Origin: an uncultured Acidobacteriota bacterium | Lineage (GTDB): Bacteria; Acidobacteriota; Vicinamibacteria; Vicinamibacterales; UBA2999 | Direction: 5' to 3' | Length of the DNA stretch: 64,000 nucleotides | Assembly: GCA_963814955.1 (NCBI GenBank) | Contig: CAWFEX010000013.1 | Coordinates: 245,921 to 309,920 of the forward strand | Part shown: positions 47,112 through 63,969 of the stretch, one piece after another | Numbering within the stretch: the stretch's first letter is position 1 | Layout of the letters: every line of letters starts with the position of its first letter | Notes under the pieces: model-generated | What the model saw: only the letters and a program-made list of their open reading frames with translations | Told to the model about the DNA's origin: nothing | Database searches by the model: none | Made by a program: the position numbers and the translations under genes

Positions 47112-47792
47112 TCACAGATCCGCGAAGCGATATCCCACCCACGGTTCGGTCATGATGTATTTGGGCGCCGCGGGATCCTGCTCGATCTTCTTCCGCAGCG
47201 AACGGATCAGCACGCGCAGGTGCTCGGGCTGGTCGGCTGCGTGAGGGCCCCAGATCGCCTTCAGTACGGCGCGATGCGTCAGCACGCGGCCGGGATGCTG
47301 TGCGAGATACGTGAGCAGCTCGAATTCCTTCGGTGTCAGCCGCACCTCTTCGCCGTTCCGGAGCACCCGAAATCGTTCACGATCGATGACAAGGTCGCCT
47401 CGTACGATCGGCTCGGACGTCGGTGGACTCTCCACCCGCCTGAGCCCAGCACGGATACGCGCGAGGAGCTCCTCGGCGCCGAACGGCTTCGTCACGTAGT
47501 CGTCTGCCCCTGCATCCAACGCGCGTACCTTGTCGCCTTCGGCGCCGCGCGCGGAGAGCACCAGGATGGGCACGTTCGACAGTTGTCGTACGCGAACGCA
47601 CAGCTCGACGCCGTCGATATCCGGCAGGCCCAGGTCGAGCACGACCAGGTCCGGCCTATCGCGATCCACCGCCTCCAATGCCGCGCGACCAGTCATCGCG
47701 GAGAAGACGTCATAGCCCTGCGCGCGCAAAAGCGGCGCCACCGTGCCGATGATGTTCGGCTCGTCGTCAACGATCAGGATGCGCGAGCCCAT
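47112..47792 (-). CDS. kdpE: OmpR-family response regulator KdpE
   Basis: Receiver ILIVDDEP...DLVVLDLGLPDIDG plus a winged-helix ...LTPKEFELL..L......VLT....L..IWG...TEPWVGYRF. Starts 2 nt after the kinase stop. Confidence 0.85.
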   Translation of the reverse strand: MGSRILIVDDEPNIIGTVAPLLRAQGYDVFSAMTGRAALEAVDRDRPDLVVLDLGLPDIDGVELCVRVRQLSNVPILVLSARGAEGDKVRALDAGADDYVTKPFGAEELLARIRAGLRRVESPPTSEPIVRGDLVIDRERFRVLRNGEEVRLTPKEFELLTYLAQHPGRVLTHRAVLKAIWGPHAADQPEHLRVLIRSLRKKIEQDPAAPKYIMTEPWVGYRFADL

Positions 47793-47794
47793 GC

Positions 47795-49314
47795 TTACGA
47801 GATCGCCGTCGGCACGCGGACCGATCCGGGCACGACGATGGAAAACCTCGCGCCCGCGTGCGCGACGTTTTCGGCCCAGATCCGGCCACCTGCCGCCGAC
47901 AGCAGCCCGCGCGTAATCGAGAGGCCCATTCCGGTTCCAAATGTTGTCTGACGGGCGGTACGGCCACGATAAAAACGTTCGAACAGGTGGTCGAGCTCAC
48001 CGGGATCCAGACCGGGTCCCTGGTCGGTGATCGCAACATGCAGACCGTCAGGCTCGACACGCGCCTGCACGAGAATCTCCTTGTCCTTTGGCGAGTAGTG
48101 TGCGGCGTTTTCGATGACGTGAGACAGCGCAACCGACGATCAAACGTGGATCGATCTCGACCTCCATGTCGGAGTCCGCATCCACGCGCAGCGCGTGCCC
48201 CTCGACGTGCATGCCTGACGTGGGCGACGGCAGCATCTACAACGTCGGCCGCCGTGACCCACTGCCGCTCGATGCGGATCGCCTCCGCATCGATGCGCGC
48301 CATGTCGAGGATGTCCTGAAACAGGCGAGTGAGGCGGTCGAGCTCCACGATGGCGGTGTCCGCCTGCACATGCCGGTCATTCGTGGGCAGATCGCTGCGC
48401 AGGTTCTCCACGGCGACTCGTATCGCCGTCAGTGGTGTTCGCAGATCATGGCTGAGCGCCGCGAGCAGCGTGCCCGCCAGGTCCGCCTTCTGCCGCACAA
48501 GCGCGGCGGCGTCACGTTCCGCCAGGAACTGCGCCCGTTCGATGGCAATGGCGACGACGCCGGCGACGGCGTCGAGCGTGCCGATGTCGAGCGCCGGGGA
48601 CGCCGCTACCAGAAGCCCAACGGCTTTCGTACCGTGTCGGAGCGGGACGATGAACGACTCGTTGCGTTCGCCGGCCCGGACGTGGCCTCCGTACGCACGT
48701 TGTCGGGCATCGAACTCCAGGGTGCCGCGCGCCTTCGCCAGCGCCGTGTTGAGGGCGCTCACATCGACGGAAGATCGTCGCTTCCGCCCTGGTAGATGCG
48801 CCAGCCGTGCTCGTCGGGAAGGCAGACCGCCACTCTGGCGAGCTCGAAGCGGCGCGCGACGTAGCGGGCCAGCACCTCGATCGCGCCGGCGGTCTCGGTG
48901 GTCAGCAGCACGTCACGGGTCAGGTCGAACAGACGCGTCACTTCATTGCGGCGCGCGATCGCGTCTGCGCGCGCGATCCTGCGCCGCCGCGGACAGATTG
49001 CTGGCGATGACCGCCACCACGAGGAAGGCGAACAGCGCAATCCAGTTCTGCGGATCGGCGATCGTGAATGTGCCGACCGGAGGCAGGAAGAAGAAGTTGA
49101 GCGTCAACATGGCCAGGATCGACACAATGATCGCCACTCTCAGCCGCGCGAGCGTCGCGGCGCCCAGCGCCACCAGAAGAAGCACCAGGGCAGCCGTTGT
49201 CGGGCTGACATCAGGCAACGCCCGGAGCGCCGACCGTGACGGCTGCGATAGCGCCAAGGCTGCACAGCGAAGACGAGGATGTCGCGCACGCCAGGGTTTG
49301 CGGCCCGTCATCAC
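47795..49314 (-). pseudogene. kdpD: KdpD-type membrane/GAF/histidine-kinase half, at least 4 frame breaks
   Basis: Pieces lie in different frames. In order: TM region (...NFFFLPPVGTFTIADPQNW...), then IARRNEVTRLFDLTRDVLL...GAF-like, then H-box LSHDLRTPLTAI, then EGHALRVDADSDMEVEIDPRLIV, then LSHVIENAAHYSP...ITDQGPGL...GTGMGLSI. Junctions are near 48975, 48770, 48210 and 48133. Confidence 0.75.
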
Positions 49315-49829: not shown

Positions 49830-49965
49830 ACGTAGCCAAATTCGCTCACGAGCGAAGCGGGGGAACCATCGGAAGTCCCGGTTGTGGCTTCCAGGGGGCG
49901 CGTCCGGCATTGAGCCCGGTAGAGGACTCCAACCTCGAGCCCGTCAGCTAACCCCGTCGGCAATT
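49830..49965 (+). promoter_or_regulatory. c-di-AMP riboswitch (ydaO/yuaA class) in the kup leader
   Basis: AAUUCGCUCACGAGCGAAGCGGGGGAACCA...CCAGGGGGCGCGUCC...CCCGGUAGAGGA...CUCGAGCCCGUCAGCUAACCCCGUCGGCA matches the conserved cores of the ydaO motif (GAGCGGGGGACCCA, GGGGUGAAUC, GGUAGGG, CCCGAAUCCGUCAGCUAACCUCGUAAGCG). GGAGG and the kup GTG follow immediately. Confidence 0.75.
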
Positions 49966-49974
49966 GGAGGTTTC

Positions 49975-51907
49975 GTGTCCGTTTCGTCCGCTGCCTCGCG
50001 AGTCGACGCCCCGACGCCAGCGCGTGATACACCGCGCCGGCTGCTTCCCCTGACACTCACCGCGCTCGGCGTGGTTTACGGCGACATCGGTACCAGCCCG
50101 TTGTACGCCATGCGCGAATGCTTCTTCGGGTCACACTCGGTACCGCCCACGCACGACAACGTGCTGGGCGTGCTTTCACTGATCATCTACTCACTGATGC
50201 TCGTCATTTCGATCAAGTACGTCGCGTTGGTCATGCGTGCGGATAACCACGGCGAAGGGGGCGTGCTCGCGTTGACCGCGTTGGTCCCAGGCCGGAGCGG
50301 CGCAACCGGCGGGCCCACGCGGCTGGCTGTCGGGCGACCAATACTGATTGGACTCGGCATTTTCGGAACCGCGTTGCTGTATGGCGACGGCATGATCACG
50401 CCCGCCATTTCCGTGCTCGGCGCGATAGAGGGGGTGGAAGTGGCCACGCCTCTATTTCGGCCCTACGTGGTGCCTGTCACGGTCGCGATTCTGGTCGCGC
50501 TCTTTGTGATTCAGAAGTACGGCACTCATCGCGTGGGAGGACTGTTCGGTCCCGTCATGATCATCTGGTTCGTCGTCATCGCTGCGCTTGGCGTCGTCTG
50601 GATCGTGCGTGCGCCAGCGGTGCTCGGTGCGTTCGATCCTCGACACGGCTTCGACTTCTTCCGCGACAACGGCATTACAGGTTTTGCCGTGCTTGGCGCA
50701 GTCTTCCTGGTTGTCACGGGTGGCGAAGCGCTTTACGCCGACATGGGGCATTTTGGAAGGTATCCCATTCGTGTGGCGTGGTTTGCGCTTGTGCTCCCTG
50801 CTTTGGTGCTGAATTACCTCGGCCAGGGAGCGTTGCTCCTGACTCGATGCGAGCGTCGAGCATCCTTTTTTCCTGCTCGCACCATCGTGGGCGCTGCTGC
50901 CGCTCGTGGGACTCGCAACGGCCGCCGCGATTATCGCATCGCAGGCGCTGATTTCCGGCTCGTTTTCCATTACCCGTCAGGCGATCCAGCTTGGGCTCGC
51001 GCCCCGGCTCGAAGTGGAGCACACGTCGGCTCATGAAATGGGCCAGATCTACGTGCCTCAGGTGAATTGGGCGTTGATGTTCTCGACCGTGCTCATCGTG
51101 ATTGGGTTCGGTTCGTCCGGTGCGTTGGCGGCAGCGTACGGCATTGCGGTGACGCTGACCATGATCATTACGGTGTTGCTGCTGTACGTGATCATGACGC
51201 AGCGCTGGCGGTGGCCCAAGCCGGCGGCCCTGGCGGTGGTGATTTTCTTTCTGACCATCGACCTCGCATTCTTCGGCGCGAACGCGCTGAAGATTCTCCA
51301 GGGCGGGTGGGTGACGCTTGTGGTTGCACTGGTGCTGTTTACGCTCATGACGACCTGGAAGACCGGCCGTCGGCTACTGGCCGAACGGCTGACAGCGCGC
51401 GCGCTTCCTCTCGACGAGTTCCTCGCGACTGTGGCTGCCGTCCAGCCGGTGCGCGTGCCTGGGACGGCGGTGTTCATGACGGCACAGCCCACGGGAACGC
51501 CGCCGGCACTCACACACAATCTCCGGTACAACAAGGTTCTTCACGAGCATGTCGTCGTGCTCACGGTGACGACGGCGCAGAGACCGCATGTATCCGCCGA
51601 GGATCGCGTTTCGGTCGAGCCGCTCGGCTACGATCTGTTCAACGTGCGCGTGCAGTACGGATTCATGGAGGATCCCGATGTTCCGGCAGCGCTCCTGCAG
51701 GCGCGCGAGCAGGGCCTGATCCTCGATTCTGATGATCTGACGTACTTCCTGGGGCGCGAGACCATCATCGTGACGCGTCGAAAAGGGATGGCCATCTGGC
51801 GCGAGAAGCTGTTCGTCCTCATGGCTCGCAACGCGATTCGCGCGACGGCGTTCTTTCGTCTGCCGCCCGAGCGTGTCGTCGAACTGGGTGTGCAGGTGGA
51901 AATGTAA
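49975..51907 (+). pseudogene. kup: KUP/HAK/KT potassium transporter, single frame break at about 50845
   Basis: GGAGG upstream of GTG 49975. [14 protein letters not shown] motif. Frame 1 reads to ...[12 protein letters not shown], then frame 2 reads [41 protein letters not shown]...GQIYVPQVNW, colinear with E. coli Kup. Confidence 0.8.
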
Positions 51908-51914
51908 GGACGGC

Positions 51915-52658
51915 CTACTCCCAGTAATCCCTCAGTTCGCTCAATCCTCCGATGATGAGATCCGGAGAAACAGCGGAAGAGGCCGGCAGGCCTGCGCCGG
52001 CCGCATCGACCCAGATGCCGGTCATCCCCATCTTTTGTGGCTGTCCGACATCCCATTCCAGATTGTCGCCAACCATCCAGGTCTCGGGCGGAGACGCAGC
52101 CAGCTCGTTGAGCGCCAAGCGGTAGATTCGCTCGTCCGGTTTTCCGAACCCCAGCTCTCCTTCGACGAGAATCAGGTCGAACAACGGCTCCAACTGGAAC
52201 CGCACGATCTTCTGACGCTGAACCTCGGCCGCGCCGTTGGTGAGCAGCGCGAGTCGGCACCCGCTCTCGCGCAGCCACTTCAGTGTTTCAACGGCGCCCG
52301 GGAAAAGAGCAGTGCGCTCGTCGCGGCAACGGTCGTATCGCTCGGCGATTCGTTCGACCAGTGCGTCATCGTCAGTTCCAATGGCGGCGAGCGCCATCTT
52401 CGTGATCTGCCGCCGGGCCGCGGCCAGGTCCAGGCGACCCTGTCGGTGCCGTGCCGGGTCCGACCAGAACCATTCGCGAAGCCTGAGGATCTCAGCCAGA
52501 ACCGTTTGCGGATCCACGTGGGGCGCGCATGTTTCGCAGGCGACGTCCCAGCAGTCCACGACCGCACTGCCGTCCACGATGGTGTCATCCAGGTCGACCA
52601 GAACAGCACGCGGCCGCTGGCGGATCGCAGCCGTACCCGGGGCAGAAGGCGCGCTCAC
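51915..52658 (-). CDS. HAD-superfamily hydrolase (phosphatase)
   Basis: Motif I VLVDLDDT, motif II LLTNG, Lys in GFGKPD, motif IV MVGDNLEWD. GTG start. Confidence 0.8.
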   Translation of the reverse strand: MSAPSAPGTAAIRQRPRAVLVDLDDTIVDGSAVVDCWDVACETCAPHVDPQTVLAEILRLREWFWSDPARHRQGRLDLAAARRQITKMALAAIGTDDDALVERIAERYDRCRDERTALFPGAVETLKWLRESGCRLALLTNGAAEVQRQKIVRFQLEPLFDLILVEGELGFGKPDERIYRLALNELAASPPETWMVGDNLEWDVGQPQKMGMTGIWVDAAGAGLPASSAVSPDLIIGGLSELRDYWE

Positions 52659-52738
52659 GACGTAACATTAGACTCGTTTTCGCTGACCACCTTGAATCCT
52701 TGGCATTCGGCAAAGTCCGTGGCAAAGTGACGGGTCAC

Positions 52739-53713
52739 ATGTCTTCCGAGAGCGCCTCCGTACTGCAACGCGCATCAGCCGTCGATTCTGCCTGGAGCCT
52801 GCTTCGAGCCGCGCGCCAATTGGCCGACGGGCTCGAGAGGAGCGGGCGATTCGAGCTGTTCGGAGACGCCGAACCCGATGGTTTGCGGCCGTTGACGCCC
52901 GGCAGCTCCGGTGGAGTGCTTGCGTGGCAGCCAGGCGAAGGGTGGGAATCGCGTCTCCCGGCGGACGATCCGCGATCAGATCTGCTGAATTTATACCTCC
53001 CCATCTGCAGCGCTACGTCCGCGCGTCCGCTTACGGTGGGCCACCTCGGGCAAAGCCTCGATGGATTCATTGCAACGCCATCGGGCGACTCGCAGACCGT
53101 CACCGGCGGCGACAACATCGTCCACCTGCATCGGATGCGCGCGTTGTGTGACGCGGTGGTCGTCGGCGCGGGTACTGTCGCAGCCGACGATCCGCAGCTC
53201 ACCACACGCCACGTGCCGGGACCGCACCCGCTCCGCGTCATCTTCGATCCCGGACGCAGGCTGACGCCGACATTTCGACTGTTCACGGATCGCACCGCTC
53301 CCGTGCTGTACATCTGCACGCGATCCCGGATTTCAGCGGGTGAGAGCCATGTCGGTAGCGCGGTGATCGCCGCGATCGAGGGCGGGGAACCGGGAGAAGA
53401 AGCGGCGCAGGTGTTGCATCTTCTGCGTGCGCGCGGATGCGTGCGAGTGTTTGTCGAGGGAGGCGGGGTTACCGTATCGCGATTCCTCGAAGCCAATCTT
53501 CTCGATCGCTTGCAGATTGCTATCGCGCCGATACTGATTGGTGAAGGGCGTCCAGCGGTTCGGCTCACGCCGCAGGTTCGCTTGCGTGACTGCCGCCGGC
53601 CGAGTTACCGGGTGTTCCGCATGGGCGGTGACGTGTTGTTCGACTGCGACTTGAGCGTCCAGGCTGACAACGCTCACAATGGTGTTCCCGGGATGGTTAA
53701 TCGAGTCATCTAG
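52739..53713 (+). CDS. RibD C-terminal-type (DHFR-fold) reductase with N-terminal extension of about 95 aa
   Basis: GQSLDGFIATPSGDS..VTGG....HLHRMRALCDAVVVGAGTVAADDPQLTTR......PLRVIFD and ...VFVEGGGVTVSRFL matches the RibD_C pattern. No deaminase domain. Confidence 0.75.
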   Translation: MSSESASVLQRASAVDSAWSLLRAARQLADGLERSGRFELFGDAEPDGLRPLTPGSSGGVLAWQPGEGWESRLPADDPRSDLLNLYLPICSATSARPLTVGHLGQSLDGFIATPSGDSQTVTGGDNIVHLHRMRALCDAVVVGAGTVAADDPQLTTRHVPGPHPLRVIFDPGRRLTPTFRLFTDRTAPVLYICTRSRISAGESHVGSAVIAAIEGGEPGEEAAQVLHLLRARGCVRVFVEGGGVTVSRFLEANLLDRLQIAIAPILIGEGRPAVRLTPQVRLRDCRRPSYRVFRMGGDVLFDCDLSVQADNAHNGVPGMVNRVI

Positions 53714-53765
53714 TGGTGACAGGTACTTCTTCAGCGTATACGGTCCACTAAGTACCTGGCGAATC

Positions 53766-54653
53766 ATGCGCAGGTTCAGCTTCGCGCTGGTCGTCATTCT
53801 GGTGGTCCTGGCGGGCACGTCAGGGCGGCGGGCCTCGTCTGCGCCGGAGCCGGTCACAACATTTCGTGTCGCCACGTTCAACATTCATAAAGGTGCTCCC
53901 AGGCAGGGTGCCTATGACCTCGAGCGCACGATCGAGGGGATCCGGCACCTCGACGTGGACCTCGTCGGCATGCAGGAGGTGATGCGCAATCACCCCGGCT
54001 TCCGCTGCGACGACCAGGCCGCGCTGATGGCAGAGGGGCTGCGGCGGCGTACCGGACGTCCATGGACACATGTTCGTGCGAAGGCGTGGATCACGGAAGA
54101 TCGCCAATGTATGGCCGAAGGTCGAGGATCAGACGCCGCCACCGAAGATCTTGCGTTTCTTTCGGCGAGCCCCGTTCTCGAATCGAGCTCGGTCCGCCTG
54201 TCAGAGGGACGGGTGGGATTGGCCGTGCGCGTCGCAGCGATGCCGCATCTGCCTGTCATCGTGACGCACCTGGCAGCGAACCGCGAAAATCAACCCGATC
54301 GGATCCGTGAAATCGCGAGACTCCTGCCGTGGGCGCTGCGACAAGGTCCTGGCCTGCTGATCGGCGACTTCAACGCCCAGCCGGACTCCAGCGAGCTCGG
54401 TACGGTAATGGCGCAATATCGCGATGCGTGGGCCGAAGCCGCCGCACGTGGCCGGGTCGGCGGCGTCACCTCCGGATCGACGCGGCCGGGCCGGCGAGTA
54501 TCTCGCATCGACTACGTTTTCTATCAGCCGGGAATCGACGTCACGTTGGAGTCCGTGGACATCGTCGATTTTTCGACTTTGCCTGGATTCGGTGAAGTTT
54601 CGGACCATCACCCTGTGGTGGCGACGTTTCGTCGGAATCCTGCAGTCGACTAG
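53766..54653 (+). CDS. secreted endonuclease/exonuclease/phosphatase (EEP) family protein
   Basis: Signal MRRFSFALVVILVVLAGTSG. Contains FRVATFNIHKG, DLVGMQEV, LLIGDFNA and VSDHHPVVATF. Confidence 0.8.
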   Translation: MRRFSFALVVILVVLAGTSGRRASSAPEPVTTFRVATFNIHKGAPRQGAYDLERTIEGIRHLDVDLVGMQEVMRNHPGFRCDDQAALMAEGLRRRTGRPWTHVRAKAWITEDRQCMAEGRGSDAATEDLAFLSASPVLESSSVRLSEGRVGLAVRVAAMPHLPVIVTHLAANRENQPDRIREIARLLPWALRQGPGLLIGDFNAQPDSSELGTVMAQYRDAWAEAAARGRVGGVTSGSTRPGRRVSRIDYVFYQPGIDVTLESVDIVDFSTLPGFGEVSDHHPVVATFRRNPAVD

Positions 54654-54721
54654 ACCGCCTTCATTACCGTGGGCCGGGTCCTTGGACTCGGCGAATCAAG
54701 CGGGTCCGGAAGGACCCGCCC

Positions 54722-55609
54722 CTACACTGCACGCCTCTGCTCTGGAGGCCAGGCCGCGAAATCGTCGTGACCGACGACGACGCGGGAACGTCCTGCGGCA
54801 ACATGTTCCAGACGACGCGTGCGCCACCGCGCGATGGCAGTTGCCTGTTCTGGCGCCATCTCGGTGGCGGCTTGTGCCCAGCCATCGATGAGGAGCCGCA
54901 TTACGTCACCCTCGGCTGGTCCCAACCTCCAGTTGCTCGACTCACGCCGGACGCGATACCCGAGATCCACAAAGCACCGTTCCGCGGACGCGGCGGCTTC
55001 AGGCCCCTGCGCCGGCCCGCCTAGTCCCTTGTCGGTGTTCTGATGGCGGTTCATGAGATCTCGAACTGTGTTGTCCAGAGGCTCTTCCGGCGTGCACGTG
55101 AATTGGCCGTTGTAGGTGATGGCGAAGAGCGCTGTCGCGCCTTCCGCATGGCAATGTGCGGCAAGCGCACGGAGCCAGGATTCCGACACGAGATCGAGCA
55201 GGGCAGACGCAGTCACAAGATGGCGCCCCGAGAACATCTCGCGGTCGTCCAGGATTCCGAGGTCCTGCTGCCGCGTCTCGACGTCGCACTCGAGCTGCGG
55301 GCCGAGAAGGACGCATCGCCCCGGCTCGATCCAGGTCTCGTATCCGCGCGCGACGCCCCAGGAGGCTAGTCGTTCTGGCAGCTCCGCCAGAAGAGCAGCG
55401 CTCCGGTCGACAGCAAGCCACTGCTGTTTGCGGCGCAGACGCTCGCACAAATACCGGACGTTCGAGCCGGTGCCGGTACCGAGGTCCAGCACCCGGATCG
55501 GTTCGCCTGCGGGCGCGGTTTCGACGACTGCGCGCGTCAGTGCTTCGGAGCGCGCCGCAAAGTCGGCGGGCTCGCGCAGTCGCAGCCAATCGGAGAGTGC
55601 GTCAGCCAC
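54722..55609 (-). CDS. class I SAM-dependent methyltransferase
   Basis: Motif I RVLDLGTGTGSNVRYL. GTG 55609 overlaps the stop of the upstream GT4 gene. Confidence 0.75.
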   Translation of the reverse strand: MADALSDWLRLREPADFAARSEALTRAVVETAPAGEPIRVLDLGTGTGSNVRYLCERLRRKQQWLAVDRSAALLAELPERLASWGVARGYETWIEPGRCVLLGPQLECDVETRQQDLGILDDREMFSGRHLVTASALLDLVSESWLRALAAHCHAEGATALFAITYNGQFTCTPEEPLDNTVRDLMNRHQNTDKGLGGPAQGPEAAASAERCFVDLGYRVRRESSNWRLGPAEGDVMRLLIDGWAQAATEMAPEQATAIARWRTRRLEHVAAGRSRVVVGHDDFAAWPPEQRRAV

Positions 55610-56687
55610 GCGTGTCCAAGTGACTGATGGGAGCGAGCGCAGCCGCCATCCGCGTGCAGGCGTCGTCCCAGGTTGGCAGCAGGTCACGCCTGCGTCGTGC
55701 GCCTTCGGCGAGGGTCGCTCGAAGATGGTCGTCGCGAAGCACACGAGAGAGGGCGTCGGTAAACGCCAGGACGTCTCCCACCGGCACGATCAGCCCGGCG
55801 TCATCACCGACGAGATCCGGGATTGCACCGGCCATCGTCGAGACCACTGGAAGTCCGTGGGCCAATGCCTCGGCGACCGCCATCCCGTAAGTCTCTTGCT
55901 GCGTGGCAAGGACGAAAAGGTCGGCCCGGTCATAGGCACTCGCGAGAGCGGAACGGTCAAGGTCCCCGACAAGCGAAACGCGATCCCCCATGCCGAGCGA
56001 CGCTACCTTTGCCCGGACGCGACCGGCTGTTGCCGGGTCGCGCGTGAGACTGCCGGCGCACGTCAGACGCCACGGCACGTCCCGTGTCGCGCCAAGCGCC
56101 GTAAGCATCAATTCGTGACCCTTTCCTTGATTGAGCGTCGCTACGGTCAAGAGCTCGAGGGTACGAGCGGGGCCATTGTCGGCCGTGACGCGCGAGCCGC
56201 GCGCCAGCGGTGCGGGATCCGTGCCGGGTTCGACGATGACTACACGATTCGGCTCGATGCCGTATTTCGCGATCAGTGGGACTGCGGCTTTGCCTGTGAC
56301 AACGACGAGCGCCGCGGCTCCGAGGGCGCGGCGCTCTCCCTCCTCGAAGCGCGCGGCGGTACTCGCATCGAGGCCTATGGCGGCAGCCAGGGGCTGATGA
56401 ACCAGTGCCACAAGACGCAGACGTGATGCCTCGCGGACGATGATCTCGGGCATGGCGCCGAGGGCCAGGCTGTCGACGATGACGACGGATCCTCCGTCAA
56501 CGGCAGCGAGCACTCGCTCGGCGTGCTGCAGCGCGTCAGGTGTTGGATAAGGAAAGCTCGTGTCGAGCTCGAGAACGTGCACCAGCCAGCCTCGCCGTCG
56601 GAGGCCGTCAACAATCCGCAAATCATAGATATAGCCACCGGTGCGCGTCTCGAGCGGACCCGGCGCAGCAAGGACAACCGACGGCAT
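55602..56687 (-). CDS. GT4-family (GT-B) glycosyltransferase
   Basis: TGGYIYDLRIV N-terminal region. C-terminal ...ETYGMAVAEALAHGLPVVSTMAGAIPDLV (E-x7-E-type region). ATG is 1 nt after the upstream stop. Confidence 0.8.
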   Translation of the reverse strand: MPSVVLAAPGPLETRTGGYIYDLRIVDGLRRRGWLVHVLELDTSFPYPTPDALQHAERVLAAVDGGSVVIVDSLALGAMPEIIVREASRLRLVALVHQPLAAAIGLDASTAARFEEGERRALGAAALVVVTGKAAVPLIAKYGIEPNRVVIVEPGTDPAPLARGSRVTADNGPARTLELLTVATLNQGKGHELMLTALGATRDVPWRLTCAGSLTRDPATAGRVRAKVASLGMGDRVSLVGDLDRSALASAYDRADLFVLATQQETYGMAVAEALAHGLPVVSTMAGAIPDLVGDDAGLIVPVGDVLAFTDALSRVLRDDHLRATLAEGARRRRDLLPTWDDACTRMAAALAPISHLDTRG

Positions 56688-56688
56688 C

Positions 56689-57096
56689 TTATGCCGGTTT
56701 GATTTCGGCCTCGAATGACGCCGACGCGATGTGGGACTCGTGCAGTGTGACGCGGATCCGCTCGAGTTTGGTGCCCCCCGGTCCAAGATCGCCGCGCGCG
56801 ACGGCGGCGACAAGACCGTCGAAGACGACCCGTGCCAGCATCTCTGTCGTGGTGTTGCGGCCGGCGAAGGCCGGAATCTCGTCGAGGTTGCGATAATTCA
56901 AATCGGCGAGCACCCGCCTCAGCACGTCTCCCGCGCGACCTATATCGACCACGATGCCGTCGGCGTCGAGGTTCGGTCGCTTGAGCTCGACGTCCACGAC
57001 ATAGGTGGCTCCGTGAAGTCGCTGTGCGGGGCCGAACACCTGGCCCTTGAAACTGTGGGCAATCATCATGTGGTCACGAACGGTGATGCTGTACAT
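56689..57096 (-). CDS. 6-pyruvoyl-tetrahydropterin synthase/QueD (COG0720) homologue lacking the canonical catalytic residues
   Basis: [16 protein letters not shown]...[16 protein letters not shown]...IVVDIG...LNYRNLDEI aligns with QueD FEAAHRL...HKCGRLHGHSFMVRLE...LDHHYLNDI, with the changes Cys to Ala, HGH to HGA and DH to NY. Confidence 0.7.
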
Positions 57097-57140
57097 AGGT
57101 CAAAGGGCAAAGGTCAAAAGGCAAAAGGCAAAAGGGCGCC
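57097..57140. repeat. tandem A/G-rich (CU-rich on the coding strand) short repeat
   Basis: AGGTCAAAGGGCAAAGGTCAAAAGGCAAAAGGCAAAAGGGCGCC fills the whole spacer between the dehydrogenase stop and the PTPS-like ATG. Confidence 0.7.
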
Positions 57141-57142
57141 AA

Positions 57143-58119
57143 CTACGAGTATCTGATCCTGTGGCACAACGTGTCGCCTGGCGCCCGGGCGAGCGTTGAC
57201 ATGACGTCCGGAAGCGCCTCGAAGTCGCTCTCGCCCGTAATCAGCACGTCGAGCGCCGGGTTGCGCAGCAGACCGAGGACGAGCTGCATCCGCCGGCGAC
57301 TGTCCCATCGCGGACGCTGTGATGGGGCGACATGACCCACCTGTGAGGACGCGATCGTCAGGCGTTTGGAATGGAATGCGCCTCCGAGCGGCAGCGGCAC
57401 GGTCTGATCGCCAAACCAGCTCAGCTCGACGATTTTGGCTTCAACGGCCGCCACCTGCAGCGCGAGATCAAGGCCGCCCGGCGCGCCGCTCGCGTCGATG
57501 ACGAGGTCGGCCTCGGGACGGGCCGTGTGCGGTTCTGCGAACTGCACCTTCAGAGCCCTGGCGACTTCCGCGCGGCGAGGATTGATGTCGATCAGCTCGA
57601 CGTCGCATCCGGGAATACCCGAAAGGAGCCATGCAACCAGGCATCCGACGGTTCCCGCGCCGATCACCGCGATACGATCGCCGAGGTGCGGCCGGCCGTC
57701 CCAGACTCCGTTGACGGCAGTCTCGAGATTGGCGGCCAGTACCCGCGCGCCCGGGAGGTGTGCCGTCCAGCAGGAGGTGCACGTCCGCGGCTGGGACGAT
57801 GAAGCGAGTTTGGTGGGGATGCAGAACGAACACTGTGCGGCCGACCAGAGTTTCGGGACCGCGTTCGACGCGGCCGACGATCGAATAGCCCGTACTTCAC
57901 GGGGGATGGAAACTCTCCCTGCTGGAACGGTGCGCGCATGCGCTCCCATTCGCTCGGCGGAACACGTCCACCAAACACGATCGCCTCCGTGCCGCGGCTG
58001 ATGCCGCTGTACAGCGCGCGCACGACGACATCGCCCGCGGCCGGCGTCGGCAGTACTTCGTTGCGAATTTCGCCATGTCCTGGTGCGGTGACCCAGAATG
58101 CTCTGGCCTCATCCTGCAT
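57143..58119 (-). pseudogene. MDR-superfamily zinc-type alcohol dehydrogenase, two frame breaks
   Basis: [19 protein letters not shown]...SGISRGTE...PVKYG | [26 protein letters not shown]...PPGRA | [15 protein letters not shown]...[12 protein letters not shown]... lie in three frames. Breaks occur in C-runs at 57889-57891 and 57742-57744. Confidence 0.75.
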
Positions 58120-58133
58120 ACGCCGACATTCTG

Positions 58134-58844
58134 ATGCCGTACACACGCCGTTACAATGTCGTGTTCGTCTCGGGGACCGGAATTACGGCAGGCGTTGCGT
58201 GGATCGTTGGTTCGTCGATCGACGCCGGCGTTGTTTACCCGCTGCAAGCAGCCGCCTTCTTTGCGCTGCTCGTCGTGGCCGTCGTCAGCGTGGCCGGCGC
58301 GGACCATCCGTTCCCGCGCTTCGGACCAGCCAATTACGTGACAACGATCCGGGCGATGCTGGTAGCGCTCGTCGCAGGGTTGGTCGGGCGTTCAGTACCA
58401 CCGGGAGTGCTCTGGGGCGTGATATTAGTGACGGCGCTGGTGGCCGTGCTCGACGGTCTCGACGGCTGGCTTGCGCGCAACACAGGCACGGTCAGCGCGT
58501 ACGGCGCACGATTCGACATGGAAACTGACGCGGCGTTCATCCTCGTCTTGTCGATACTGACGTGGCAGCACGGAAAGGCCGGTTCCTGGGTGCTGCTCTC
58601 CGGGCTCATGCGCTACGCGTTCGTCGCGGCGGGATGGGTGCTTCCATGGCTTGCCAAGCCGCTGCGGGCAACCCGACGCGGCCGGACCGTGGCCGTCATC
58701 CAACTGTTCGGGCTGAGCGTTGCGCTCGCCCCGATTGTTTCCCCGCCGGCCAGCGATGTGGCGGCTCTCATCTCGCTGGCTGCCCTCGTGTGGTCGTTCG
58801 GCATTGACGTCGCGTGGCTGTCGCGCCAATACCGCACGTCGTAG
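58134..58844 (+). CDS. CDP-alcohol phosphatidyltransferase family protein
   Basis: Exact signature D-G-x2-A-R-x8-G-x3-D-x3-D in [23 protein letters not shown]. Multi-TM. Start uncertain (only 15 nt from the divergent dehydrogenase start). Confidence 0.8.
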
Positions 58845-58853
58845 GAGCGAAGC

Positions 58854-59303
58854 ATGTCCATCGTGTCACGGCTTGGATCGCCCGCCGGCGCACTGCGAAT
58901 TCTGTCGGTGGCGCTCGGTGTGTTCCTGATCTTCATGGCGCTCGACAAGATTGAGTGGCTGAGCGACAGCACGATGCTGACGCGGCGCCTTCAAGAGTGG
59001 CGCGGCATGGTTCGTCCGCTGGCCCGCTGGTACCTCGATACGGTCGCGATTCCCGGAGCTCCCGTATTTGCGCGCGTGGTGGTGCTGGCCGAGCTGGCCT
59101 CAGGGACCGCGTTGATCCTGGGAGTAAAAATACGCCTGGCCGCCGCGTTGGCGTTTCTGATGGTGCTCAACTTCCATCTCGCCAGCGATCTCGTCTTCCG
59201 TTACAGCTATTTGATCAACGCCTACGGGCTGCCGATCCTCGGTGGCCTGCTGGCCCTGGCTGTCGGCGGAACCCGGTTGCCGTTCAGCGTGTCCCGAAGC
59301 TAG
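58854..59303 (+). CDS. DoxX-like membrane protein
   Basis: 149 aa with four hydrophobic segments in the DoxX pattern (LRILSVALGVFLIFMALDKI...; ...ELASGTALILGV). Confidence 0.55.
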   Translation: MSIVSRLGSPAGALRILSVALGVFLIFMALDKIEWLSDSTMLTRRLQEWRGMVRPLARWYLDTVAIPGAPVFARVVVLAELASGTALILGVKIRLAAALAFLMVLNFHLASDLVFRYSYLINAYGLPILGGLLALAVGGTRLPFSVSRS

Positions 59304-61000
59304 TGCGTTCGTTCGTAGTGTCCGGCTTCAGCCGGACCGTCGTGAGCGCGTCGAAGGGCGGCTTCAGCCGGACCGTGCGAGCCTCGGGTGCGTCGAAGGC
59401 GTCGAGCAGCATCGACGTCAGTTCGTGCATCGCACCGATCGATGGACGTTGCGGTTGCAGACCCTCATGGAATCCCGCATCGCGCAGCCGGTGAAGCACA
59501 GGGTCGCGGCGGCCAATCACGTGCACGGGCACGCGCCACGGCGCATCCTTCCCGCTCACGGCGGCGGGCGGCTGATGGTCGCCAATCACGATCAACAGCG
59601 GGTCGTCTGACTGCTCGCGCACGTAGCCCGCGAGCGACGTGTACTCATAAGCCATGGCGCGCACGTAGCTCGGCGCGAGGTTCGACAGGTCCGGACTGAC
59701 AGCCATGGCGCGCGCCACATCACCTTTGTCATAGGCATCCCTCGTCAACATCCGCGACCAGGCTGGCTGATACGGCGGCACCGGGCCGAACGGGGCATGT
59801 GTGGTGCTCGTGGGAAAAACGACGAATACGGGAGCGCGAGTGGATTGGCGCCGCTCGAGCGTGTCGAGCCGGGCCAGCGCGTACTGATCCGGAATGCTCC
59901 ACCACCCGAACTGCGGACCCTCATAGTCGAGGTCATCGCGGCCGTAGATCACGTCGAAACCGTAAAAGGCTCCTTCGGGCCAGGCTTGCCGCATACCGGG
60001 CATCAGTGCCACGGTGCGATACCCTCGTCTGGCGAAGTTCGTGATGATCGTGTTCCGCCGCGACGCCATCAGGGAGGTATAGGCGTACTGGTCGCGCACT
60101 TCCACGCCCGACAGCAGGCTCAGGTGCGCCAGCCACGAGGAGCCGCCGAAGGTGGGGGAGTCCACGTAGGCCGAGACCACCTGACGCCCGGAATCACGAA
60201 TGGCGGCCTCGAATTCGGCGCGGCTGGCAGCGAGCCCCGCCGAAATTTCCGCCGTCTCGTATGCGATGGCGCCGTACAACTCGACGAAGATGAGCAACAC
60301 GTCCACGCCCGTGATGGCCCGAAGGCCGGTGTCGAGCGCGGGACTCGGTCCGAGCGGCGCGGCCGCCGCACCGGCGCCAAACATCCCCAGCGCGTAGCGC
60401 GCCTGGCGCGCGTAGGCTGGCGTCACCGGGTTGGCAAATGTCACGTCAAACGGGGATCCGCCCGCGAACCGCTCACCGGCGAAGAGGACGAGGGCAATCG
60501 CGCCCAGTGCCCCAAGCGTCAATCGGTACTGGTCGACTTGCCATCGCCAGGGCGACCTGGCCAAGAGCGAGGCGAGCGACGACGTAGGCCACGGCAAACG
60601 CCAGCACCGTTACGGTCGCGACAGTGGCAATCAACCACCAGGGGGCGGCCCGTGCAAGCATCGCTGCGACATTGCCCAGATGCTGGGAGTCCCAGTACAG
60701 ATTGAACTCCCGTCCATAAAGGCCGGGAGCGGTCACGTCGAGATAGTGTCCGGCGACGAGCGCCACCCAGATTGCCGGCAACAGCCGCCGCGCCAGCGCC
60801 GGAGCGCGCCGATAGGCGAGGGTCAGCAGCAGCACGCACACGGCCAGCTCGACTGACAGGGCGGCGCCCCACGCAATCTTCGGTGTGGGCCACACGTTTT
60901 CGAACGTGAGGGAGGCGTTCAGGACGATTAGCGACAGGACGAGGAGTAACCCGTCACGGAGCGTTGCCGCGAACCGCCGTCGTTCACGTATCTGGGTCAC
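59284..61000 (-). pseudogene. LtaS/phosphoglycerol-transferase-like sulfatase-fold membrane protein, one frame break at about 60538
   Basis: Four TM segments in frame a (60473..61000) and a fifth TM plus sulfatase-like ectodomain in frame b (...LTLGALGAIALVLFAG...DSPTFGGSSWLAHLSLLSG...). Deleting one A (TT at 60538-60539 on the plus strand) gives ...LAMAVDQYRLTLG.... Confidence 0.65.
59314..59385. repeat. REP hairpins, family 2
   Basis: CGTAGTGTCCGGCTTCAGCCGGACCGTCGTGAGCGCGTCGAAGGGCGGCTTCAGCCGGACCGTGCG. Lies inside the 3' end of the minus-strand ORF 59284..60597. Confidence 0.75.
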
Positions 61001-61005
61001 TTTCT

Positions 61006-61653
61006 TTAGACCGACGAGAGAAGGTGTCCGAGCTTCTCCTTCTTGGTCTTCAGGTATCGCGTGGTGGACGCTGTCGGCGGGATTTCAATCGGAAGCCGCT
61101 CACTTACCGACAATCCGTCGCCCGTCAGGCCCGCGAGCTTCCTTGGATTGTTGCTGAGCAGACGCGTCGACTTCACGCCGAGATGGCGCAGCATGCCGAA
61201 CGCGGCGCGATAGTCCCGGCCGTCGGCGGAGAAGCCGAGCCGCTCGTTCGCCTCAACAGTATCGACGCCCTGGTCTTGCAGGGCGTAGGCGCGAATCTTG
61301 TTCGCCAGCCCGATGCCGCGCCCTTCCTGATCGAGATAGAGCAGTACGCCGCTCCCGTTCTCGACGATTTGATCCATCGCCGTGTGCAACTGCGGGCCGC
61401 AATCACAGCGCGCGGAATGGAAGAGGTCGCCCGTCAGGCAGGCCGAGTGCACGCGCGTGAGCACGTTCTCTCCGTTGCCGATGTCCCCGCGGACGAGCGC
61501 CACATGGGTTTTTGTGGAGAAAACGCTCTTGAATACGTGAATGTCGAACTCACCGTGATCTGTCGGAAGCTTTGCCGAAGCGACGCACCGCACCTGTGGC
61601 AGGCGAAGCAGCGCAGCAATGGAGGTCAGCGTACTGCGGAACCATGAAGTCAC
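61006..61653 (-). CDS. ribA: GTP cyclohydrolase II (monofunctional)
   Basis: RVHSACLTGDLFHSARCDCGPQL (zinc Cys triad) and YLDQEGRGIGLANKIRAYALQDQGVDTVEAN are near-identical in pattern to E. coli RibA. No RibB domain. Confidence 0.9.
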   Translation of the reverse strand: MTSWFRSTLTSIAALLRLPQVRCVASAKLPTDHGEFDIHVFKSVFSTKTHVALVRGDIGNGENVLTRVHSACLTGDLFHSARCDCGPQLHTAMDQIVENGSGVLLYLDQEGRGIGLANKIRAYALQDQGVDTVEANERLGFSADGRDYRAAFGMLRHLGVKSTRLLSNNPRKLAGLTGDGLSVSERLPIEIPPTASTTRYLKTKKEKLGHLLSSV

Positions 61654-61736: not shown

Positions 61737-62513
61737 TCAGCGCGCAGATACCGGCTGCAGCCCGGCTCGCGTCAGCGCTTCGCGAGCCTCCGCGCCGGTC
61801 AGCGTCCGCAGGAAGGCGCGAGCCGCGTCGCCGCTGACGGCGCTGGTGGGGATGGCTGCCACATAGATAGTCGGCAACTGAATGGCCGCAGGCAGAGTGC
61901 CGGCGACTTTCACACCCTTATTCGGTTGCAGCTCGCTCGTAAACGAGATACCGAGCTCTGCCTCGCCCTTGGCGACCGCGTCTGCGACTTCAGACCCCTG
62001 CGTTCGATAGACGATCTTCGGTTTCATTGCTTCCGCGATACCCAACCGCTGAAGGAGGCCTTCCATATACGTTCCGGACGTTCCGCCTGACGCCGGACTC
62101 ACATAAGAAACCGAGCGGGCCTTGAGCAGCGCGGCCTTGAAGGCGTCGGGCGTCGAAAGATCGGGCGAGGGTGCTCCCGCCCGCACGCCAACACCAATCA
62201 ACGCGCGCGCCAGATCGACCCGGCTTCCGGCGACAATGAGATTCTGCTTTTGCAGCGCGTCCATGCCGGGACTGGCAAGGACGACGACATCGGCTTTCTC
62301 GCCGCTGGCCAATCGTTTCTGCAGTGCGCCCGTGGTGTCGCTCACGTAGACGAGCCGGTTACCCGAGCTGCGGGTGAACGCGGCGCCGGCCTCCTTGATG
62401 GGTTCTGTCACCGCCCCGCCGACCAGCACTCTGAGCTCGGTCTGCGCGAACGCAAACGCGGGCAGCAGGATCAGCCAGATGAACGCAACACTCGTACTCA
62501 ATACTTGACGCAT
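61737..62513 (-). CDS. periplasmic substrate-binding protein, ModA-like (molybdate/tungstate-type PBP2 fold)
   Basis: Signal MRQVLSTSVAFIWLILLPAFAFAQ. LRVLVGGAVTEPIKEAG..F....G..L.......TGAL.KRL.SGEKADVV.LAS pattern. No adjacent permease or ATPase. Confidence 0.6.
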   Translation of the reverse strand: MRQVLSTSVAFIWLILLPAFAFAQTELRVLVGGAVTEPIKEAGAAFTRSSGNRLVYVSDTTGALQKRLASGEKADVVVLASPGMDALQKQNLIVAGSRVDLARALIGVGVRAGAPSPDLSTPDAFKAALLKARSVSYVSPASGGTSGTYMEGLLQRLGIAEAMKPKIVYRTQGSEVADAVAKGEAELGISFTSELQPNKGVKVAGTLPAAIQLPTIYVAAIPTSAVSGDAARAFLRTLTGAEAREALTRAGLQPVSAR

Positions 62514-62583
62514 CAGATTGTCTCCCTCGATCGTTGCGTGTCTCGTCCCGGGCGATCCTTCACATCCGTCGCGGCCGGTCATC

Positions 62584-63969
62584 TCAAGGTGCAGCGACCG
62601 GCGCCGGTGCGGGTGCGCCGCGGGGTGGAGGCTTCGGCACGTCGGGAATATTCACGTAGGTGCTCTGGTAGCGAACCGGTCTTCCTTGCTCATCGAGCCA
62701 GTTGAGGGACTCGTTGAAGGCCACCGGCGGCGGGTCGCCACGCGGCACGGTCGCCTCGACGATCACGAGGCGGTTCTCGTGCATATAGATCGACGCGAAA
62801 GTGCGTGACTGGTCGGCGGTGTTGGTGAGTCGCATTTCGACCCCCTGAACGAGGGCGATGCCGTTCCAGCTGAGCGTCGTTATTTTGGCGTCGCGTTCGG
62901 CGAACTTCGATATCGCGTAGAGCGTCGCGCCGCGTATGTCGGTCTTCCAGTAACCGACGCCCCAGTCGGCGATGCCTTGACAGGTGTTTGCGCCCGGCGG
63001 ACACGACCGCGATCGCTCCACCAGCAGACGTTCGGTGGGGTTGTAATCGACCACCGTAGCAGAGTAGCGGGTGGAACCCTTGACCGCCGCGTACACACGC
63101 GCCGGGAGGGCAGCGCCGTACTGGGAGAACCAGGTCGTGTCGGTGACCACGGGCCTTGCAGGGAACGTGAGAGTGAATCGTTCCTCCTGGCTGACAACCT
63201 CTGCCCACTCATCGGCGGCATTGCCGGCAGCAGCGCCGGGAACGATGCGGGTCTCATCCAGTTTTTGAGGTGCCGGCAAGCGGTTCGTGGGGTCGATGGT
63301 TGTCTTCAGCGTGTTGCTGTCCGCCCCATGTGCGTCGGCGACGCGCACCTGAAGGTCGCACTTCGCAGCCGACGCCGTGCCTGAACCCGTGGTGGGATAC
63401 GGGAGGACAGCTTGTACGCGACCTCCGGAAACCGTGCCGCGCACGACTCCGGGCAGCGGCATATCGCCACACGCGACCGTGAACCAGACGTGAGGTGCGG
63501 GGCCAAGATCGCCTGACGCATCGGTGGCCGCCACTTCCAGGTGAAGCGCGGGCGGGTTCGGTCGCATGCCGAGAAGGCGCAGGTCCGCGATGCGCGGTAC
63601 GTGGGACGGAATCATCAGAGCGGTAGGGAGAGTGCGCCCCGCCGGCAGTTGCACCACCAGCGCACGCTCGCCGGGTTTGGCGTCCCCGGTCACCTCAATC
63701 GCGATAGAAAACCAGGTGAGGGCCCCCTGAAACGTCTCGCCTCGCGTGACGCTCGAGACAGAGACGCCCTGGGACGGCGAGATTTCGGCGCTTTGAATAT
63801 CGTCGCGCGTCGCAATGACAACATTGACGAGGGTGGTCTGCCCGAGGGGGAGCTGGCGTGGATAAGCGTTCTCGATTCTGAGCTGCTGGGCTTGGGCCAA
63901 CTCGGCGCCCAGGCAGAGATACGAGACGACGGCGACTCCAAGGGTGAGGGACCGAATACTCCGGCGCAT
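62584..63969 (-). CDS. secreted multi-domain protein; the C-terminal 200 aa are paralogous to 39026..39769
   Basis: Signal MRRSIRSLTLGVAVVSYLCLGAELAQAQ. Beta-rich N-terminal half. C-terminal ERFTLTFPARPVVTDTTWFSQYGAALPARVY...SCPPGANTCQG...ERDAKITTLSWNGIALVQGVEMRLTNTADQSRTFASIYMHENRLVI. Confidence 0.7.
   Translation of the reverse strand: MRRSIRSLTLGVAVVSYLCLGAELAQAQQLRIENAYPRQLPLGQTTLVNVVIATRDDIQSAEISPSQGVSVSSVTRGETFQGALTWFSIAIEVTGDAKPGERALVVQLPAGRTLPTALMIPSHVPRIADLRLLGMRPNPPALHLEVAATDASGDLGPAPHVWFTVACGDMPLPGVVRGTVSGGRVQAVLPYPTTGSGTASAAKCDLQVRVADAHGADSNTLKTTIDPTNRLPAPQKLDETRIVPGAAAGNAADEWAEVVSQEERFTLTFPARPVVTDTTWFSQYGAALPARVYAAVKGSTRYSATVVDYNPTERLLVERSRSCPPGANTCQGIADWGVGYWKTDIRGATLYAISKFAERDAKITTLSWNGIALVQGVEMRLTNTADQSRTFASIYMHENRLVIVEATVPRGDPPPVAFNESLNWLDEQGRPVRYQSTYVNIPDVPKPPPRGAPAPAPVAAP

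Follow-up and report, generated by a model that had tools for sequence, protein, structure and literature searches.

The 64,000-nucleotide (nt) window analysed here, a stretch of contig CAWFEX010000013.1 from an uncultured member of the Vicinamibacterales (Acidobacteriota), carries at positions 51915-61653 a compact locus in which a GTP cyclohydrolase II (GCH II), a pyrimidine reductase and a PTPS-like protein are encoded among glycosyl-, methyl- and membrane phospho-transfer enzymes. A preliminary description of this DNA had listed eleven genes and their families. All 11 of 11 were present at or near the coordinates given there, and every family call was reproduced with Pfam and NCBIfam, with the sulfatase-type fold recovered through Foldseek. 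The genes, with the matches on which each call rests, are as follows.

51915-52658, minus strand: HAD-IA phosphatase, divergent from the RibD_C gene (PF00702, E 1.4e-24; DLDDT motif)
52739-53713, plus strand: pyrimidine reductase made up of RibD_C only, with no deaminase domain (PF01872, E 2.5e-36)
53766-54653, plus strand: secreted protein of the endonuclease/exonuclease/phosphatase (EEP) fold (PF03372, E 2e-13)
54722-55609, minus strand: class I S-adenosylmethionine (SAM)-dependent methyltransferase (weak match to Methyltransf_25, E 1e-5; AlphaFold2 fold)
55602-56687, minus strand: GT4 retaining glycosyltransferase (PF00534, E 3.7e-24; PF13692, E ~1e-24)
56689-57096, minus strand: T-fold protein of subfamily PTPS-IV, the marker gene of the cluster (PF01242, E 1.2e-23)
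57143-58119, minus strand: NAD(P) dehydrogenase of the MDR superfamily, BchC-like (weak ADH_zinc_N match; frameshifted)
58098-58844, plus strand: CDP-alcohol phosphatidyltransferase, divergent from the MDR gene (PF01066, E 7.6e-14)
58854-59303, plus strand: DoxX-family membrane protein (PF07681, 28.2 bits against a cut-off of 23.6)
59284-61000, minus strand: membrane-anchored phosphotransferase of the alkaline-phosphatase superfamily, LtaS/EptA/OpgB type (Sulfatase, 24.4 bits; Foldseek; frameshifted)
61006-61653, minus strand: monofunctional GCH II of 215 amino acids (aa) (PF00925, E 7e-67)

The tight packing and translational coupling claimed for these genes were borne out. A single base separates the PTPS-IV stop codon (TAA, 56691-56689) from the GT4 ATG at 56687, and the methyltransferase gene, which begins with GTG at 55609, shares 8 nt with the end of GT4 (stop at 55604-55602). 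The gap between the GCH II stop and the LtaS-like start is 5 nt, and 9 nt lie between the CDP-alcohol transferase and DoxX. The starts of the methyltransferase (55609) and GT4 (56687) were corrected, and the EEP gene most likely begins at 53766, the signal-peptide start, which is M30 of the open reading frame (ORF) at 53679; the models of the MDR and LtaS-like genes had missed frameshifts. For the CDP-alcohol transferase, an alternative start is possible at 58134. The spacer between the MDR and PTPS-IV genes (57097-57142, minus strand) consists of about six heptamer repeats (CCTTTTG, ACCTTTG or CCCTTTG) and shows several indels relative to L002, a metagenomic contig 94% identical to the window.

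On sequence grounds, the PTPS-like gene is a clear orthologue of SCO6650 from Streptomyces coelicolor (PDB 3D7J) and belongs to subfamily PTPS-IV of COG0720. The two proteins align over residues 1-130 at ~61% identity (E 6.8e-45). An FGPAQ motif has been described as the PTPS-IV signature (PMC5445326), and 'VFGPAQ' was invariant in 82 cluster-linked PTPS-IV sequences, including that of the window. Identity among PTPS-IV proteins of different phyla ranged from 59 to 87%. The segment 'LHESH' was likewise invariant, and we take it to contain the Glu by which T-fold enzymes bind 2-amino-4-oxopyrimidine. Canonical PTPS and QueD proteins carry CxxxxxHGH or CxxxHGH motifs with catalytic and zinc-binding roles (PMC5041015). 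The window protein reads 'QRLHGATY', with HGA instead of HGH (third His replaced by Ala) and no upstream Cys; it therefore lacks the catalytic and zinc motif of canonical PTPS-II and QueD (PTPS-I) proteins, and it scored 44 bits against the NCBIfam QueD model, for which the cut-off is 89. The RefSeq label '6-carboxytetrahydropterin synthase' for PTPS-IV proteins is an over-annotation.

Several PTPS-IV proteins are joined to other domains. A PTPS-IV-GT4 fusion (P0313) and MDR-PTPS-IV fusions were found among the protein representatives; as Rosetta-stone evidence these may be read-through artefacts. Six further proteins (P0251, P0318, P0243, P0249, P0254 and P0275) contain three tandem PTPS-IV domains, some with extensions of ~400 aa. 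Their low-complexity, GC-rich composition suggests a eukaryotic, perhaps algal, origin, and PTPS-IV may therefore also occur outside bacteria, as a covalent trimer.

The occurrence of PF00925 and PF01872 in PTPS-IV neighbourhoods has been noted before (PMC5445326), and both are present in the window. To survey such neighbourhoods, one genome per species (185,579 species) was scanned with a pattern from the PTPS-IV alignment, which yielded at least 587 confirmed loci. Neighbourhood analysis covered the best-scoring 80 of these, and 52 that had at least 8 kb on each side were treated as full loci. Genes in the 52 full loci were counted by tblastn with proteins of the window or of L001, a locus on a 3.27-Mb contig of a less closely related organism, because gene calling based on third-position GC content was imperfect and antisense shadow ORFs sometimes won. 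Near PTPS-IV, we found MDR in 52/52 loci, GT4 in 51/52, RibD_C in 45/52, the methyltransferase in 44/52, the CDP-alcohol transferase in 43/52, the LtaS-like gene in 35/52 and GCH II in 31/52. Median distances of these partners from PTPS-IV were 0.7-3.5 kb (1.7 kb for the CDP-alcohol transferase). The typical order is <CDP-OH >MDR >PTPS-IV >GT4 >methyltransferase <RibD_C. The conserved core is an operon of MDR, PTPS-IV, GT4 and methyltransferase, accompanied by the divergent CDP-alcohol transferase, RibD_C, the LtaS-like gene and often GCH II.

The preliminary description would have been refuted if these families were syntenic in no related genome. This was clearly not so: in at least five phyla, the PTPS-like gene is accompanied by members of a set that makes up eight of the eleven genes. 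The other three are local: HAD (3/52), EEP (3/52) and DoxX (2/52) were confined among the full loci to close Vicinamibacterales relatives, and DoxX also occurs in L002-L004. An arrangement kept in the same order in several phyla is far beyond chance.

Among the best-scoring 80 loci, Acidobacteriota included Vicinamibacterales relatives, and Actinomycetota were represented by Micromonospora, Pseudonocardia, Streptomyces, Amycolatopsis and Dactylosporangium. The Alpha-, Beta- and Gammaproteobacteria included Variovorax, Thauera, Inquilinus, Marinobacter, Kushneria and Lamprocystis; Longimicrobiales (Gemmatimonadota) and metagenome-assembled genomes (MAGs) of Polyangiaceae and Bdellovibrio completed the set. 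RefSeq/PGAP annotation independently places the same genes on plasmids of Methylosinus trichosporium OB3b, Thiodictyon, Streptomyces fungicidicus and Peteryoungia. ORF clustering of all loci revealed additional partners that the window lacks: an LPG_synthase_TM protein resembling the MprF-type flippase (30/52 loci), a creatininase-family protein (9 loci), an FkbM methyltransferase (6) and YceI (6). The LtaS-like and flippase-like genes recur in both Gram-positive and Gram-negative lineages.

The variable periphery of the cassette is related to lipids, the envelope or sugar nucleotides. Variovorax humicola has a PlsC-like acyltransferase, a Granulosicoccaceae MAG encodes ManC and Amycolatopsis carries an IMPase-like phosphatase, while mdoH occurs in three loci, from Methylosinus and two Chromatiaceae (L083, L039 and L022). 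On the Methylosinus OB3b plasmid (L083), the glucan synthase gene mdoH occupies the divergent position usually held by the CDP-alcohol transferase. The presence of mdoH next to the cassette hints that periplasmic glucans could be the acceptor in some Proteobacteria. MdoH was considered as a core member and cytochrome b561 as a conserved partner, and both were set aside at three loci each.

The frameshifts in this copy of the cluster bear on whether it is intact. Three-frame ORFs, tblastn with the intact L001 orthologue and indels relative to L002 showed that two 1-bp insertions, each an additional C within a C run, at ~57891 and ~57744, divide the MDR gene among three frames. In the LtaS-like gene, a 1-bp frameshift near ~60526 produces ORFs at 60473-61000 and 59284-60597. 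Intact LtaS-like proteins are ~540-574 aa long, and one intact homologue (P0121) is 94% identical; L001 has intact MDR and LtaS-like versions of 326 and 536 aa. Three frameshifts in two core genes could mean that the cluster is a decaying pseudogene remnant. However, the unrelated, housekeeping-type neighbour kup (49882-51907, plus strand) is also split by a frameshift into two overlapping ORFs, and the kdpD-like sensor region (41018-49300) is likewise fragmented. Over 17 kb, the window and L002 differ at 137 gap positions, mostly 1-bp indels that fall within the cluster as well as beyond it; each sequence has intact genes where the other is broken. Identity to intact orthologues is high on both sides of each frameshift. 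Because kup is also broken, L002 differs at so many gap positions and the L001 genes are intact, the three frameshifts are very probably assembly or sequencing errors rather than gene decay, and the pseudogene explanation is very improbable. The window appears to derive from an indel-prone, long-read type of assembly. Directly upstream of kup lies a cyclic di-AMP riboswitch (RF00379, 49824-49974, plus strand; 65 bits, E 7.5e-13), and from its position the kup ORF listed from 49882 is over-extended at its 5' end.

The enzymes predicted to act first resemble those of early riboflavin synthesis. The window GCH II exceeded the cut-offs of TIGR00505 (229.8 bits, cut-off 205.85) and NF001591 (257.6 bits, cut-off 148). 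As described earlier, it keeps the Tyr of the KIRAY motif, which was present in 34 of 40 cluster-linked GCH II genes; in the other six, from other lineages, His, Leu or Met replaces this switch residue. Work by Spoonamore and colleagues in 2006 reportedly found that this Tyr separates normal GCH II from formamidopyrimidine-forming variants, and that the Streptomyces-type enzyme stops at the formylated pyrimidine. A creatininase-family gene accompanied GCH II in 5/6 of the Tyr-less loci compared with 3/34 of the Tyr loci (p 4.7e-4, not corrected for phylogeny). The creatininase family also includes ArfB, a formamide hydrolase of archaea. Because creatininase is linked to Tyr-less GCH II, the pathway seems to need the deformylated diaminopyrimidine, which suggests that all lineages converge on this compound by either route. 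The pairing of Tyr-less GCH II with creatininase is found in Actinomycetota loci (L029, L041, L057, L061, L067 and L085). In L015, L023, L024, L031, L038, L053 and L086, the cluster-linked GCH II is a longer protein of ~368 aa that carries an additional domain of ~170 aa at its N-terminus.

The RibD_C protein matched PF01872 only, in agreement with the claim that it has no deaminase domain. Its best solved relatives are 2,5-diamino-6-ribosylamino-pyrimidinone 5'-phosphate reductases (6p8c, E 7e-24, and 2azn), and by sequence it is nearest to the reductases whose substrate is the GCH II product prior to deamination. An N-terminal extension of ~95 aa is partly conserved in Gram-negative lineages; these 95 residues gave no Pfam match and contain neither an HAE nor a PCxxC deaminase motif. 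The HAD protein matched the NCBIfam models CTE7 and YjjG-type pyrimidine nucleotidase, and scored 37.8 bits against YigB, for which the cut-off is 225. As a local addition, it may remove the terminal phosphate. The preliminary description had taken GCH II, reductase and HAD together as the source of a dephosphorylated ribitylaminopyrimidine. That claim is not supported by the survey, because it rests on a phosphatase that is not conserved.

In NCBIfam, the MDR protein matched BchC best, although the score was below the cut-off of that model (E 3.9e-13). Threonine and galactitol-1-phosphate dehydrogenases came next, and these relatives suggest an enzyme that oxidises secondary alcohols or polyols. 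The catalytic zinc ligands are missing, and an invariant block, 'SRGTE...MRAPFQ.G.FP.PVKYGY', is accompanied by a conserved GxGxxG motif. The nearest solved relatives of GT4 by sequence are sucrose-phosphate synthase (6kih), MshA, BshA and PimA. Sucrose-phosphate synthase, MshA and PimA glycosylate phospho-polyols or phosphatidylinositol, an analogy that we count in favour of a membrane-linked product. The methyltransferase was modelled with AlphaFold2 at a predicted local distance difference test (pLDDT) score of 93.1 and has a class I fold; its Foldseek neighbours were generic class I enzymes for small molecules with substrates of several types, among them phosphoethanolamine N-methyltransferases, the sugar O-methyltransferases RebM and AtmM, and cyclopropane synthases.

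The membrane enzymes carry intact catalytic motifs. The CDP-alcohol transferase scored 52.8 bits against PF01066 (gathering cut-off 22), and its D-x2-DG-x2-AR-x8-G-x3-D-x3-D motif is complete and does not vary among 48 sequences. Its best NCBIfam matches were weak, to archaetidylinositol-phosphate and phosphatidylinositol-phosphate synthases, with all equivalogs far below their cut-offs. The LtaS-like protein narrowly missed the Pfam Sulfatase cut-off (24.4 and 23.0 bits against 25), and sequence searches of PDB and NCBIfam gave no match; relatives came from a fold search alone. An AlphaFold2 model from 30 homologues (pLDDT 66 overall, 70-95 in the catalytic domain) has N-terminal helices at residues 2-179 and an alpha/beta domain at 230-535, and its top Foldseek matches were LtaS, LtaP, MCR-1/ICR, BcsG and GacH (E 7e-7 to 1e-4), together with PbgA. 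In an alignment of 42 sequences that span several phyla, E240, T283, H401, D474 and H475 each reach 95% conservation or more; by motif analogy, we equate them with the LtaS residues, which include a metal-binding Glu and Asp-His and a Thr nucleophile. All 35 loci with the LtaS-like gene also have the CDP-alcohol transferase, while 0/9 loci without the transferase have it (Fisher p 6.6e-6, not corrected for phylogeny). This restriction fits an enzyme that uses the lipid product of the transferase. The secreted EEP protein, a local addition, may act as a phosphodiesterase.

Several observations separate the locus from riboflavin synthesis. Neither the genes of the cluster nor another 20 large ORFs in the window encode a recognisable RibB, RibH, RibE or deaminase, which agrees with the earlier statement that lumazine synthase, riboflavin synthase and RibB are missing. 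Rfam was run on the whole window with gathering thresholds and on the cluster with E values of up to 1. Neither scan placed a flavin mononucleotide (FMN), tetrahydrofolate (THF) or preQ1 riboswitch, or any other element, inside the cluster, and a scan of seven related loci was equally negative. FO synthase was found neither here nor in those seven loci. The plasmid-borne copies belong to hosts whose housekeeping rib genes must lie elsewhere. It is thus highly probable that the locus encodes a dedicated and conserved pathway other than riboflavin synthesis.

We infer that this pathway turns GTP into a 2-aminopyrimidine or pterin that carries a sugar and a methyl group and that, by analogy, is probably phosphodiester-linked to a membrane lipid. 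GCH II would open GTP to 2,5-diamino-6-ribosylamino-4(3H)-pyrimidinone 5'-phosphate, and the deaminase-less reductase, which is of an archaeal/fungal-like kind, would convert this to the ribityl form with retention of the 2-amino group. Because no deaminase is among the families that recur in related loci, this group is probably kept. The zinc-free BchC-like MDR and the zinc-less T-fold PTPS-IV would remodel the side chain or ring. One option is that the C2' ribityl hydroxyl is oxidised and the ring closed to give dihydroneopterin phosphate, formally the Amadori route of GTP cyclohydrolase I (GCH I); deamination is an alternative at this step. GT4 would attach a sugar, and the methyltransferase would then attach a methyl group. 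By analogy with phosphatidylinositol-phosphate synthase, which uses CDP-diacylglycerol, the CDP-alcohol transferase would couple the product to a lipid through a phosphodiester; CDP-diacylglycerol is favoured as donor because there is no conserved cytidylyltransferase. The product-bearing lipid would be flipped across the membrane, where the LtaS-like enzyme could hand the phospho-head group to an extracytoplasmic acceptor.

The locus is the Vicinamibacterales version of a widespread orphan cassette of the PTPS-IV (SCO6650) type. Our preferred interpretation, to which we give a probability of about 0.5, is that its product is membrane-linked. More tentatively, and with slightly worse than even odds, the cassette may specify a new class of membrane lipid or envelope decoration, in which a GTP-derived glycosylated, methylated 2-aminopyrimidine or pterin head group is attached, flipped and distributed by an LtaS/EptA-like enzyme. 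The preliminary description had proposed a modified envelope pyrimidine or pterin. Synteny and the plasmid copies uphold a dedicated pathway, distinct from riboflavin synthesis, that includes a membrane branch for phospho-transfer, whereas the product chemistry and lipid link are carried forward as proposals. A number of points weigh against the membrane-linked pathway. GCH II is missing from 21/52 full loci and RibD_C from 7/52, including three inspected loci of Pseudonocardiaceae type (L041, L057 and L061), and the CDP-alcohol transferase, LtaS-like and flippase-like genes are all absent from 6/52. This window contains no cytidylyltransferase and no dedicated flippase. The Foldseek TM-scores of the LtaS-like protein are modest (0.3-0.55) and the membrane part of its model is of low confidence, the fold search with the predicted methyltransferase structure is uninformative on substrate, and substrate assignments are all made by analogy. 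In addition, the co-occurrence statistics ignore phylogeny and come from the best-scoring 80 loci.

The joint absence of the membrane genes from 6/52 loci, set beside an invariant operon of MDR, PTPS-IV, GT4 and methyltransferase, would fit a soluble pyrimidine or pteridine glycoside, similar to plant vicine or to the pterin glycosides of cyanobacteria and green sulfur bacteria, with the CDP-alcohol transferase, LtaS-like and flippase-like genes serving a separate neighbouring lipid function. The GT4 relatives MshA and sucrose-phosphate synthase glycosylate phospho-acceptors that are soluble, and a phosphatase acts next, a role for which a HAD enzyme is at hand here; plant vicine offers a precedent. 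A separate lipid function is harder to reconcile with a CDP-alcohol transferase that stands divergently beside MDR in 43/52 loci from several phyla (median 1.7 kb), or with LtaS-like and flippase-like genes that recur across Gram-positive and Gram-negative lineages. Moreover, loci that lack the membrane genes have other lipid or envelope genes instead, for example a PlsC-like acyltransferase or MdoH. We therefore regard a soluble product as unlikely. The idea that housekeeping ribA- and ribD-like genes adjoin unrelated genes by coincidence, or that the locus is a phage-defence island, draws on the fact that each family is common alone and on a weak match of GT4 to the 'GT4-conflict' Pfam family. 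The same gene order in at least five phyla makes coincidence extremely improbable, as is defence, a reading rejected because the one PADLOC match, between the methyltransferase and mad2, reflects generic SAM binding.

A further possibility is that the core is an alternative route to 5-amino-6-ribitylaminouracil, the precursor of riboflavin and F420, with PTPS-IV as the missing deaminase beside GCH II, RibD_C and HAD, whose activities suit it; the other genes would tailor or use the precursor or be unrelated. Most host lineages, for example Variovorax and Marinobacter, are not known to make F420, which counts against such a route. So do the absence of RibB, RibH, RibE, FO synthase and an FMN riboswitch here and in the seven related loci, the lack of conservation of HAD, and the plasmid copies in riboflavin prototrophs. 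PTPS-IV is also linked most tightly to MDR and GT4, not to the reductase. Published statements point in both directions. PTPS-IV genes always adjoin pyrimidine-pathway genes (PMC5445326), and an unpublished involvement of PTPS-IV in archaeal F420 synthesis has been mentioned (PMC5041015), which would indicate a uracil-type product and is one more point against the membrane-linked pathway. Conversely, a 2026 riboflavin review ascribes to the third, cluster-linked RibA copy of S. coelicolor a wholly new function 'unrelated to flavin biosynthesis' (PMC13151069). On balance, we consider the ribitylaminouracil route quite improbable.

Comparison with known systems places the cassette between several pathways. 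The S. coelicolor locus SCO6650-SCO6655 has an orthologous PTPS-IV and a GCH II paralogue (SCO6655), and Streptomyces loci (L029 and L085) share the CDP-alcohol transferase, MDR, PTPS-IV, GT4, methyltransferase, RibD_C and GCH II. In contrast to the window, where GCH II keeps its Tyr and has no creatininase, the Streptomyces-type GCH II has lost the Tyr (Leu in L029) and is paired with creatininase, and HAD, EEP and DoxX belong to the Vicinamibacterales version only. The early riboflavin pathway (RibA, ArfC/Rib7 and a YigB-like HAD) is matched by a GCH II above the ribA cut-offs, by the type of reductase and by the HAD-IA neighbour; unlike that pathway, the cluster lacks a deaminase, RibB, RibH, RibE and an FMN riboswitch, and is embedded among conserved glycosyl, methyl and lipid genes. 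The phosphatidylinositol, phosphatidylinositol mannoside and mycothiol systems (PgsA1, PimA and MshA) resemble it in a CDP-alcohol transferase weakly like phosphatidylinositol-phosphate synthase, a GT4 related to MshA and PimA, and a nearby phosphatase. These similarities are far below family cut-offs and amount to analogy rather than membership, and the alcohol here would be GTP-derived, not inositol.

The LtaS, EptA/MCR-1, OpgB, BcsG and GacH enzymes share with the LtaS-like protein a multi-helix anchor, an alkaline-phosphatase fold and the Glu, Thr, His and Asp-His residues, but identity is only 11-20% and the Sulfatase score lies just below the cut-off. The flippase domain of MprF has its counterpart in the LPG_synthase_TM partner of 30/52 loci. 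In the pterin glycoside pathways of cyanobacteria and Chlorobium, a PTPS-family gene adjoins a glycosyltransferase; unlike the cassette, those pathways begin with GCH I and a true zinc PTPS. Toxoflavin synthesis uses GCH II, RibD and a methyltransferase, but its RibD contains a deaminase and it requires ToxC/ToxD. In plants, the GCH II product is diverted from riboflavin to the pyrimidine glycoside vicine (bioRxiv 10.1101/2020.02.26.966523), a likeness in that GCH II output feeds a pyrimidine glycoside. None of these three has CDP-alcohol, LtaS-like or flippase-like partners, and no characterised pathway combines the parts found here. The earlier claim to that effect held for the gene set as a whole, although its core corresponds to the orphan SCO6650/PTPS-IV neighbourhood that had already been described (PMC5445326). 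Among the papers searched, none combines GCH II with a CDP-alcohol phosphatidyltransferase, or 6-pyruvoyl with glycosyltransferase and gene cluster, and a search on the identifiers SCO6648-6655 returned mentions only in transcriptome or model papers. The PTPS-IV/GCH II/RibD_C trio is already known; no report of the membrane link was found.

If the membrane-linked pathway is correct, hundreds of soil and water bacteria, including the well-studied Streptomyces, Micromonospora, Variovorax and Methylosinus, would divert GTP to a membrane-lipid or envelope-polymer head group of which there is no characterised example. This would give a function to PTPS-IV/SCO6650, whose structure has long been solved, and to the third S. 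coelicolor RibA, and would explain the loss of the deformylase residue in some GCH II enzymes. It would also add a new class of donor for LtaS/EptA-type transferases, with relevance to envelope charge and antibiotic tolerance, and a new purine-to-pteridine branch common to Acidobacteriota, Actinomycetota, Proteobacteria and Gemmatimonadota. Since genetically tractable hosts carry the cassette, the pathway is directly testable.

Outside the cluster, a ModA-like solute-binding protein (SBP_bac_11) is encoded upstream of GCH II (61737-62582, minus strand); it adjoins GCH II in L002, the contig 94% identical to the window, and not in L001. A secreted protein of 461 aa with no Pfam match lies further upstream (62584-63969, minus strand). 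Far from the cluster, at 11388-13160 (minus strand) and 29110-31002 (plus strand), two proteins of 590 and 630 aa contain TIR_2 domains and could be signalling or defence proteins.

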